Source: a virus (lineage: Duplodnaviria > Heunggongvirae > Uroviricota > Caudoviricetes). Taken from it: a DNA stretch of 42,488 nt. The notes below the pieces were generated by a model. It was not told the DNA's origin. It made no database searches and saw nothing but the letters and a program-made list of their open reading frames with translations. Below, piece by piece: positions 28,686 through 30,794 of this stretch (position 1 is its first letter; every line of letters begins with the position of its first letter). The stretch lies in the IMG/VR virus record IMGVR_UViG_2874945390_000011; one strand, written 5' to 3'. The position numbers and the translations under genes are program-made.

Positions 28686-29240
28686 TCAAAAAGCAATAAC
28701 TTTTTTCTCTATACCAAAAGCCATAACCATTGGTTTGTACAAAATAAATTCTGCCACCTTTAGCCAATGCTCAATGCGTCTTTCACAGGTTCTTAAACTC
28801 CATTTCGGGTGTGCATCATTCAGCAGTTCAGCCATTTTGCGTTTGGTCATCCCCCGCCCCTCATACCGTTGCCGAAGGACGCTAATCAATCCTGGATGCT
28901 CTGCCAGCACCTCACTTATGACCCGATCAATACATAACGCCTCTGCATCAGTACAATGCGCCAGCCAGCTCTTTTGCTTACCGTTAATCATATCCCGCAA
29001 AAAAGCCTCAAGTTCAGACTTGTTCAGACCTGCTTTTTTCATCCTCCGGAGCGCCTCGTTAATTGCCGTTTTTGTCAGCTTTTTAGAGGTCAACATCAGG
29101 TTAAACATATTCCCCGTCTTACCGCCACCAATATACGACCAGCGCCCCCACATACGTAGTTTTCCCTGAATCCAGACACTTTCCAGCGTGGTGAGACGAA
29201 GGTGTTCTCCGCTTTTTCCTGTATTCGTTGGGTAAATCAT
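28686..29240 (-). CDS. putative late-gene antiterminator (Q-like)
   Basis: About 185-aa ORF (start taken at internal MIYPTNTG, overlapping the ybcO-like stop) immediately upstream of the tRNA cluster and lysis cassette; positional assignment. Confidence 0.5.
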   Translation of the reverse strand: MIYPTNTGKSGEHLRLTTLESVWIQGKLRMWGRWSYIGGGKTGNMFNLMLTSKKLTKTAINEALRRMKKAGLNKSELEAFLRDMINGKQKSWLAHCTDAEALCIDRVISEVLAEHPGLISVLRQRYEGRGMTKRKMAELLNDAHPKWSLRTCERRIEHWLKVAEFILYKPMVMAFGIEKKVIAF

Positions 29241-29488
29241 AAATATCCCTCCTTTCTCCAGATTTCTTGTGTGCGAAAAACACCTTCTGCATGCATCAGG
29301 CGTAATTCTTCTTTGGTGTAATCGCTGGTTTTTACCCGCCCGTCGATTAAATCGTGGCACGAGCTACAGGCAATCGCTGCCTGCATATCGTGTGGCTTTA
29401 TCGCTGTTCCGCACGTTCCCGCCAGTCGGTAATGCGCCAGCACAGACGTTTCCGGATCGTGATTGCAGTAGCCAGGAATTCTGACGGT
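29237..29488 (-). pseudogene. YbcO-like (DUF1364) nin-region protein, 3' part, disrupted by IS600
   Basis: Translation VRIPGYCNHDPETSVLAHYRLAGTCGTAIKPHDMQAAIACSSCHDLIDGR matches recalled E. coli DLP12 YbcO; the reading frame is broken by IS600 at 29488/29489. Confidence 0.7.
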
Positions 29489-29552
29489 TGAGGTAGCCTG
29501 AGTTTAACGGACACTCCTTCCTGAAATAGAATGGCATCAGAAGGAGCTAATA

Positions 29553-29855
29553 ATGAGCAGAAAAACCCAACGTTACTCTAAAGAGTTCAAAGCCGAAGCT
29601 GTCAGAACGGTTCTTGAAAATCAACTTTCGATCAGTGAAGGCGCTTCCCGATTATCCCTTCCTGAAGGCACTTTAGGACAATGGGTTACCGCCGCCAGAA
29701 AAGGGCTCGGTACTCCTGGTTCCCGCACGGTGGCTGAGCTGGAATCTGAAGTTATGCAACTGCGTAAGGCTTTAAATGAAGCACGACTTGAGCGAGATAT
29801 ATTAAAAAAAGCAACAGCGTATTTTGCACAGGAGTCGCTGAAAAATACGCGTTAG
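29553..29855 (+). CDS. IS600 OrfA (IS3-family transposase N-terminal HTH protein)
   Basis: 100-aa ORF with HTH and leucine-zipper-like C-terminus typical of IS3-family OrfA. Confidence 0.85.
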   Translation: MSRKTQRYSKEFKAEAVRTVLENQLSISEGASRLSLPEGTLGQWVTAARKGLGTPGSRTVAELESEVMQLRKALNEARLERDILKKATAYFAQESLKNTR

Positions 29856-29890
29856 TCGAACAATGGCGACAACAATTCCCTGTTGAAGCG

Positions 29891-30709
29891 ATGTGTCAGG
29901 TATTTGGTGTATCCAGGAGCGGTTATTACAACTGGGTACAGCATGAACCCTCAGACAGAAAACAAAGTGATGAGCGGCTAAAACTGGAGATTAAGGTGGC
30001 ACATATCCGCACTCGCGAAACATATGGAACCCGGCGGCTCCAGACGGAGCTGGCAGAGAATGGCATCATCGTTGGTCGTGACCGACTGGCACGTCTTCGT
30101 AAGGAGCTAAGGCTACGCTGTAAGCAGAAACGCAAGTTCAGAGCGACTACGAACTCGAACCACAATCTGCCAGTTGCGCCAAATCTGCTGAACCAGACGT
30201 TCGCTCCTACAGCACCAAATCAGGTCTGGGTGGCGGACCTGACGTATGTTGCCACACAGGAGGGATGGTTGTACCTCGCTGGCATCAAAGATGTTTATAC
30301 GTGCGAAATTGTCGGCTACGCCATGGGAGAGCGCATGACAAAAGAGCTGACAGGTAAAGCCCTGTTTATGGCGCTCAGGAGCCAGCGCCCACCTACCGGG
30401 CTAATCCACCACTCTGATCGAGGTTCACAGTACTGCGCATACGATTACCGGGTCATACAGGAGCAGTTTGGTCTGAAAACATCAATGTCGCGTAAAGGTA
30501 ACTGTTACGACAACGCTCCGATGGAAAGCTTCTGGGGAACGCTGAAAAATGAGAGCCTGAGCCACTATCGTTTTAATAACCGGGATGAAGCCATCTCAGT
30601 AATACGGGAATACATTGAGATTTTCTACAATCGTCAGCGTCGTCACTCTCGTCTGGGGAATATCTCCCCGGCAGCCTTCAGGGAAAAATATCATCAGATG
30701 GCTGCTTAA
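29891..30709 (+). CDS. IS600 OrfB (transposase catalytic domain; expressed as OrfAB fusion by -1 frameshift)
   Basis: 272 aa from first ATG; DDE integrase-fold motifs (WVADLTY, HSDRGSQY, ESFWGTLK) in the -1 frame relative to orfA. Confidence 0.85.
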   Translation: MCQVFGVSRSGYYNWVQHEPSDRKQSDERLKLEIKVAHIRTRETYGTRRLQTELAENGIIVGRDRLARLRKELRLRCKQKRKFRATTNSNHNLPVAPNLLNQTFAPTAPNQVWVADLTYVATQEGWLYLAGIKDVYTCEIVGYAMGERMTKELTGKALFMALRSQRPPTGLIHHSDRGSQYCAYDYRVIQEQFGLKTSMSRKGNCYDNAPMESFWGTLKNESLSHYRFNNRDEAISVIREYIEIFYNRQRRHSRLGNISPAAFREKYHQMAA

Positions 30710-30752
30710 AAAAAGAACAAATGGTAGTGTCCGCTATTGCCAGTACACCTCA

Positions 30753-30794
30753 GGTGCACATCTGCCCCCGCGCCGCTTTAAGTAAATCCACCAT
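30753..30794 (-). pseudogene. YbcO-like protein, 5' part (first 14 codons)
   Basis: ATG at 30794 gives MVDLLKAARGQMCT, which joins the 3' part seamlessly once the IS and one copy of the GGT duplication are removed. Confidence 0.6.

Follow-up and report, generated by a model that had tools for sequence, protein, structure and literature searches.

IS600 interrupts a ybcO-like gene

The IMG/VR virus record IMGVR_UViG_2874945390_000011, a stretch of 42,488 nucleotides assigned to the Caudoviricetes (hereafter, the window), carries a copy of the insertion sequence (IS) IS600 within a small ybcO-like gene, directly upstream of a Q-like late antiterminator gene. In our view, this arrangement very probably arose through a single, recent, and simple IS600 transposition, with the usual GGT target duplication, into an ipaH-carrying prophage of Shigella boydii. 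The structural part of this reading is shown by the sequences compared, from the IS600 copy with its ends and target duplication to the uninterrupted gene that preceded it and the collinear flanks, and none of our observations contradicts it. In the proposed course of events, an IS600 with intact coding frames transposed into codon 14/15 of the ybcO-like gene, which encodes a DUF1364 protein, a putative nuclease of the His-Me/HNH type; the insertion site lies in the nin-like region of a lambdoid prophage with a Rac-like early region, carried by Shigella boydii.

The element occupies positions 29489 to 30752 (1264 bp, transposase on the plus strand) and is bordered by two GGT triplets. The left copy spans 29486 to 29488, and the right copy (30753 to 30755) is codon 14 (ACC, Thr) of the ybcO-like gene read on the minus strand; 11 other genomes, in which the site is empty, have just one GGT there. 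A preliminary description of this locus had reported a clean GGT duplication, and on re-inspection the flanking triplets are indeed identical. Because a 3-bp match would arise by chance in 1 of 64 cases, the decisive evidence comes from the empty site, as described in the next section.

Excision in silico, in which IS600 and one GGT were removed and the rejoined open reading frame (ORF) was read on the minus strand, yields a complete ORF of 96 amino acids that runs from an ATG at 30794-30792 to a TGA at 29239-29237. This product matches the Pfam family PF07102 (YbcO/DUF1364) over positions 2-91 of 92 (E=1.3e-43; 147.3 bits against a cutoff of 29.9), the structure of E. coli YbcO (PDB: 3G27) over residues 1-95 (E=1.4e-29), and PHROG 131, "HNH endonuclease" (E=2.7e-42). 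In the alignment with 3G27, C13, C21, the histidine of the "LAH" motif, and the "CS(S/A)CHD" motif are all conserved. The rejoined ORF is, moreover, identical in amino acid sequence to the DUF1364 protein WP_000228005.1, annotated as a coding sequence in E. coli FDAARGOS_943, whose genome contains a sister prophage with the intact gene, so that the restoration of a full ybcO-like ORF, proposed in the same preliminary description, is borne out. Judged by its sequence, the host gene is a YbcO/DUF1364 gene. Proteins of this family are predicted to be His-Me finger nucleases, and the role of the histidine is likewise a prediction (PMC4999995; PMC5714182). The ybcO-like gene is a small and probably dispensable phage gene for such a putative nuclease.

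What is left of the gene lies on either side of the element. The 5' part is a stub of 14 codons, MVDLLKAARGQMCT, on the minus strand (30753 to 30794, with its ATG at 30794-30792), and codon 14 is followed directly by an in-frame TGA contributed by the tip of IS600 (30752-30750). Because the 14-residue stub ends at this stop codon, YbcO is knocked out. The 3' part (29237 to 29488, minus strand) comprises codons 14-96 and the TGA stop, is assigned from the sequence and from the Pfam YbcO match of the rejoined ORF, and now has no start codon in a proper context. The gene shares bases with both of its neighbors: at its start, the stop codon of DUF1367 (TAA) and the ybcO ATG overlap as TAATG, and at its end, the ybcO stop codon and the ATG of the Q-like gene overlap as ATGA. 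The DUF1367 gene itself (NinB/Orf-like; 30794 to 31393, minus strand; Pfam DUF1367, E=1.7e-96; PHROG 319) shows no disruption, and its translation is coupled to the start of ybcO.

Empty sites and origin of the insertion

The allele that preceded the insertion is preserved in related genomes. An 800-bp sequence spanning the excised site finds a 100%, gapless match in E. coli FDAARGOS_943 and FDAARGOS_944, and an uninterrupted homologous stretch, annotated as DUF1367, DUF1364, and DUF1133, is present in 1320 complete E. coli genomes. An exact look-up of the DUF1367 protein returned 10 distinct genome contexts, nine of which hold an intact gene for a 96-residue YbcO. In each of these nine, the alignment to the window falls into two blocks, of which one ends at 30753 and the other begins at 29488, with an overlap of precisely the 3 nt GGT. 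The tenth context, CP026836.1, a public complete assembly, contains the IS600 and is 100% identical to the window from 27294 to 34893 (7600 bp compared), which indicates that the window derives from this genome or from one identical to it. CP026836.1 is a Shigella boydii genome (PMC12817139).

Beyond the immediate junctions, the window is collinear with the FDAARGOS_943 prophage from 11227 to 41659, differences in IS content aside, and this includes both sides of the IS600 in ybcO. Taken together with the single-GGT empty sites, this collinearity indicates an insertion without rearrangement at this copy, and the earlier proposal of a simple insertion with no later rearrangement is thus upheld.

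Two other origins of the junction deserve consideration. If the GGT triplets were coincidental, the IS600 at ybcO could mark a recombination or rearrangement junction, and a precedent lies within the window itself: another IS600 copy, at 40396-41659, lacks a target duplication, and the DNA on its far side is separated from the prophage by about 1.25 Mb in a related genome. Rearrangements mediated by IS600 have therefore taken place in the S. boydii genome. At ybcO, however, eleven other genomes have the two flanks side by side and in the same order within this gene, joined through one GGT, and an intact protein with the exact sequence of the rejoined ORF is annotated; the data in effect refute a rearrangement junction here, and we regard its probability as negligible. 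Alternatively, the interrupted allele could have been acquired by homologous recombination from a paralogous prophage that had already been interrupted. Shigella and enteroinvasive E. coli (EIEC) genomes do contain several paralogous DUF1367-ybcO-Q modules (two in FDAARGOS_943), and a cluster of 10 single-nucleotide differences is distinctive to the IS600 copy in ybcO. Yet neither junction is present in any other genome or metagenome contig that we examined, and the flanks are 100% identical to the empty site of the sister prophage. We therefore consider such a transfer very unlikely and retain a direct transposition into this gene as the preferred explanation.

Among the genomes examined, the insertion is found only in Shigella boydii CP026836.1. 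A set of 5426 E. coli genomes yielded neither IS600-ybcO junction; like the other collections scanned, it did not include Shigella chromosomes as such. Exact scans likewise found neither junction in the species representatives of GTDB, and the left junction was not found in JGI metagenome contigs. Because Shigella is folded into E. coli within GTDB, absence from its representatives is weak evidence. Exact-product look-ups of the junction-spanning ORFs gave no match. The sole match of a 68-residue internal ORF is a scaffold in which a run of N covers the position in question, and an 80-residue truncated product matches only short contigs from unrelated samples, all of which start at a GAATTC located 8 nt inside ybcO from the junction. 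These contigs most likely represent assembly-graph breaks between paralogous DUF1367-ybcO-Q modules and are uninformative on IS600. A full-coverage match in FDAARGOS_943 was considered as a second instance of the same insertion and rejected, being a different prophage with IS600 in a lysozyme gene.

The inserted IS600 copy

IS600 belongs to the IS3 group of the IS3 family; it is among the commonest IS elements of Shigella, is abundant in EIEC, and was reportedly first described in Shigella sonnei. In the window, the ends of the element can be read directly from the sequence, with the left end starting as TGAGGTAGCC at 29489 and the right end closing with GTACACCTCA at 30752. The left inverted repeat (IRL, from 29489) is TGAGGTAGCCTGAGTTTAACGGACAC and the right inverted repeat (IRR, up to 30752) is GTGTCCGCTATTGCCAGTACACCTCA. 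On direct comparison, the two repeats are imperfect and share TG...CA ends, TGAGGT.../...ACCTCA tips, and a common GCGGACAC core. A gapless inverted-repeat search of 29200-31000 did not report them because the match is interrupted.

Over its entire length (1264/1264 bp), the copy shows 99.1% identity to numerous elements that carry the annotation "IS3-like element IS600 family transposase," in agreement with the earlier identification of the element as a 1264-bp IS600. Identity to three other IS600 copies that we compared ranges from 98.6 to 99.1%, and the second copy in the window differs from it at 14 positions. The first coding frame, orfA (29553 to 29855, plus strand), encodes 100 amino acids with a Pfam HTH_Tnp_1 domain. 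The second, orfB (29891 to 30709, plus strand), encodes 272 amino acids from its ATG with an integrase/DDE core (Pfam rve, rve_2, rve_3, and HTH_21); its reading frame is open from 29792 and is intact. An A7G slippery run at about 29803-29810, within the overlap of orfA and orfB, is predicted to mediate a -1 frameshift into orfB, and the modeled -1 OrfAB fusion of 385 amino acids scores 414.5 bits against the NCBIfam model NF033516 (transpos_IS3; cutoff of 160). The sole promoter-like site at the left end of the element, 29504-29532 on the plus strand, points inward, as expected for the promoter of the transposase.

The copy thus has all the sequence-based hallmarks of IS600 and of the IS3 family, including the length of 1264 bp, the TG...CA tips, the orfA/orfB arrangement with its A7G -1 window, the rve/DDE transposase, the 3-bp duplication, and the 99.1% identity. 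The element is an IS600 isoform and not a new element. It differs from known IS600 in 10 substitutions at IS positions 250-394. These substitutions are clustered at 29738-29882 of the window and are absent from the other copy in the window and from both FDAARGOS_943 copies compared. The closest E. coli IS600 copies are at most 99.1% identical, and the cluster is missing from the best E. coli matches. The coding frames are kept, and the few amino acid changes are conservative. The pattern suggests a mosaic or a variant isoform.

The 3-bp duplication is shared by other IS600 copies in the loci that we retrieved, where it flanks the element at four other insertion sites. A limited literature search on IS600 target duplication returned no match. 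When four distinct duplicated sites are aligned, three have the motif (C/G)TGA(C/A) located 4-8 nt left of the IRL (TTCTGAC followed by GGT, GACTGAC followed by CTG, and TCGTGAA followed by CAA). In the fourth, CTGAC lies one base nearer to the IRL and runs into the duplication (TAGCTGA followed by CAC). The motif may represent a target preference of IS600, for which a sample of four sites is far too small.

Possible effect on transcription toward the Q-like gene

The Q-like gene (28686 to 29240, minus strand) encodes a putative late antiterminator of 184 amino acids, as judged from matches to DUF1133 (E=2e-107), Phage_antitermQ (29.4 bits against a cutoff of 26), and PHROG 753, "anti-termination protein Q-like" (E=9e-80), and it lies 248 nt downstream of IS600. 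The preliminary description had placed the interrupted gene upstream of Q on the same strand, and suggested that the insertion may be polar on late-gene activation. This strand assignment is correct for the ybcO-like gene, since it and the Q-like gene are both on the minus strand, but not for the IS600 transposase, which is on the plus strand and hence antisense to the Q-directed transcript.

DUF1367, ybcO, and Q were linked in series by overlaps between the stop codon of one gene and the start codon of the next (TAATG and ATGA), and the insertion breaks this series. In its place, about 1.5 kb of transcript (30752 to 29241) precedes Q with almost no plausible translation, consisting of antisense IS600 and gene-fragment RNA. 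The Q-directed strand of IS600 contains only one ORF, of 79 amino acids and started by TTG, and there are stretches with more C than G at 30380-30221 and 30000-29741 of the Q-directed transcript that are possible Rho loading sites. RNA that is barely translated, if at all, over some 1.5 kb is a classic substrate of Rho. Rho-dependent polarity would reduce read-through from the early promoter, and Q, together with the late lysis and morphogenesis genes, would be under-expressed on induction. No such under-expression would be expected with an early transcription complex that is resistant to termination. We regard a polar effect of IS600 on Q and late-gene activation as plausible, with about an even chance that it is substantial.

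Several points weigh against strong polarity. The minus strand of IS600 has no convincing intrinsic terminator, with only two weak hairpins (z of -1.9 and -1.0) that have poor U-tracts. The Q-like gene has a strong Shine-Dalgarno sequence of its own, AAGGAGGG, located 7 nt before its ATG. Lambda polymerase modified by N reads through polar signals carried by IS elements, and a search for an N-like gene, a put-like RNA, or a known antitermination RNA detected none, a result that does not exclude their presence. The insertion could hence be transcriptionally neutral, with a termination-resistant early transcript (N-like or put-like) or a promoter nearer to Q sustaining Q expression, and only YbcO lost. 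The lack of a credible terminator on the Q-directed strand and the ribosome binding site of Q both fit such neutrality, as do minus-strand promoter-like sites farther upstream, at 31828..31801 and 32328..32299, near a hok/sok locus. Against it stand the failure to detect an N-like gene or a known antitermination RNA, the suitability for Rho of 1.5 kb of little-translated RNA with C-rich over G stretches, and the number of promoter-like hits, with 6 found against 5.6 expected from shuffled sequences. Neutrality is a real possibility, although we would not expect it.

We also considered an outward promoter of IS600 that would drive Q. Elements of the IS3 family have an outward -35 sequence in the IRR, and the IRR faces away from Q here. 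A promoter scan of the Q-directed strand over 29240-30752 found no promoter-like site within IS600 or at its edge, and this candidate was rejected.

A more speculative extension is that the insertion was selected as a "lock," in which Q would be cut off from early transcription and an SOS-induced, excision-defective prophage would be kept from lysing its host. The prophage-borne ipaH effector and tRNA genes would then be retained while the lysis program is disarmed. We consider such selection improbable; were it true, the locus would be a case of a Shigella virulence prophage domesticated by an IS element. If the polarity on Q is real, it would show a single IS silencing the lysis program of a prophage, an idea that is already established. 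Since the prophage is otherwise defective, the biological weight of any polarity is limited.

Comparison with known systems

The interrupted gene resembles YbcO of the E. coli K-12 prophage DLP12 (PF07102; PDB: 3G27) in its length of 96 amino acids, its full-length alignment, and its Cys/His positions. The gene order in DLP12, ybcO-rusA-ylcG-quuD, differs from that in the window, where the gene abuts Q (ATGA) with neither rusA nor ylcG in between, follows DUF1367, and is inactivated. The two genes also share a position in a nin-like region just upstream of a Q antiterminator (PMC4999995; PMC5714182).

For the possible effect on Q, the nearest precedent may be lambda r32, reportedly an IS2 insertion in the cII-O region that is polar in a lambdoid early operon. 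As in r32-type polar insertions, an IS3-family element has entered a delayed-early operon, here at a point past the replication genes and ahead of Q, and lower downstream expression would be expected. In having several other IS elements, the prophage is also similar to the IS-riddled, defective prophages of Shigella, of which ipaH islands are an example.

The insertion is an instance of ordinary Shigella genome decay and nothing new in kind, as IS-disrupted prophage genes are commonplace there. The ybcO-like gene should be annotated as an IS-disrupted pseudogene. The locus provides a clean worked example of IS600 transposition, with a 3-bp duplication and a pre-insertion allele kept in sister genomes, and adds one further data point on the IS-driven decay of ipaH-carrying Shigella prophages.

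Prophage context and decay

The window opens with a ybhB-like PEBP gene (1-477), followed by a gene for an ipaH family type III secretion system E3 ubiquitin ligase (1057-2820; NF046045, 563 bits against a cutoff of 550), which lies at the tail-fiber end of the prophage. Given the ipaH gene, the element is an ipaH-carrying prophage and its host is Shigella or EIEC. After ipaH come tail, head, terminase, and lysis genes, four tRNA genes, the Q-like gene, the interrupted ybcO, and DUF1367; beyond DUF1367 lie hok/sok, QueH, and Rac-type replication and immunity genes. The prophage is lambdoid and occupies the gal-bio region of a Shigella chromosome.

The surroundings of the Q-like gene fit a Q-type antiterminator, which sits just upstream of a late terminator and promoter that precede the lysis and morphogenesis genes, as far as pattern matches can tell. 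A strong intrinsic terminator follows Q directly (28581 to 28612, minus strand; fold energy of -18.7 kcal/mol, z = -4.5), and a promoter scan places a promoter-like site (28535 to 28506, minus strand) before the four tRNA genes (28186-28496), which precede the lysis cassette. Further terminator-like sites, again pattern matches only, lie at 27927-27444, followed by holin, lysozyme, Rz, terminase, and other genes. The terminator at 28612-28581 and the promoter-like site are likely to form a late promoter region, a PR'-type unit that would be the predicted target of Q.

The prophage is decaying. An IS630-family element of 1142 bp (37504-38645, early-left region; inverted repeat AATAGCTGCGC, TA duplicated, transposase ORF at 37840-38625) is missing from the FDAARGOS_943 prophage. 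The second IS600 copy (40396-41659, minus strand) has unlike flanks, AAC and CAT. To its right (41660-42488) is a truncated AAA-family ATPase gene, which in FDAARGOS_943 is found about 1.25 Mb from the prophage. Because this copy joins the prophage to the distant ATPase gene, the integrase/recE end is out of place, and IS600-mediated recombination appears to have removed or relocated that end of the prophage. The sister prophage has decayed independently: its terminase gene is interrupted by IS2, an IS1 separates Q from the tRNA genes, more copies of IS1 and IS600 are present, and one head gene contains an internal stop.

Three further features were noted in passing. At 32117-33036, the nin-like region contains hok/sok, a toxin-antitoxin locus recognized by Rfam (sok, 117 bits), together with a gene for a QueH-like epoxyqueuosine reductase (32350-33036). 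An ORF at 39131-39952, whose product has a Rha-family regulatory domain, coincides at and just inside its 5' end with two Rfam matches (39182-39370), one to isrK (64.8 bits) and the other to C4 antisense RNA (76.3 bits); on these matches, the module resembles a P1/P7-like, immI-type antirepressor control inside a lambdoid prophage. Lastly, ileZ-type tRNA genes sit downstream of Q in Stx phages, and the tRNA gene at 28420-28496, called Met(CAT) by ARAGORN, is identical to one annotated as tRNA-Ile in the FDAARGOS_943 record; it probably encodes a lysidine-modified Ile2 tRNA.

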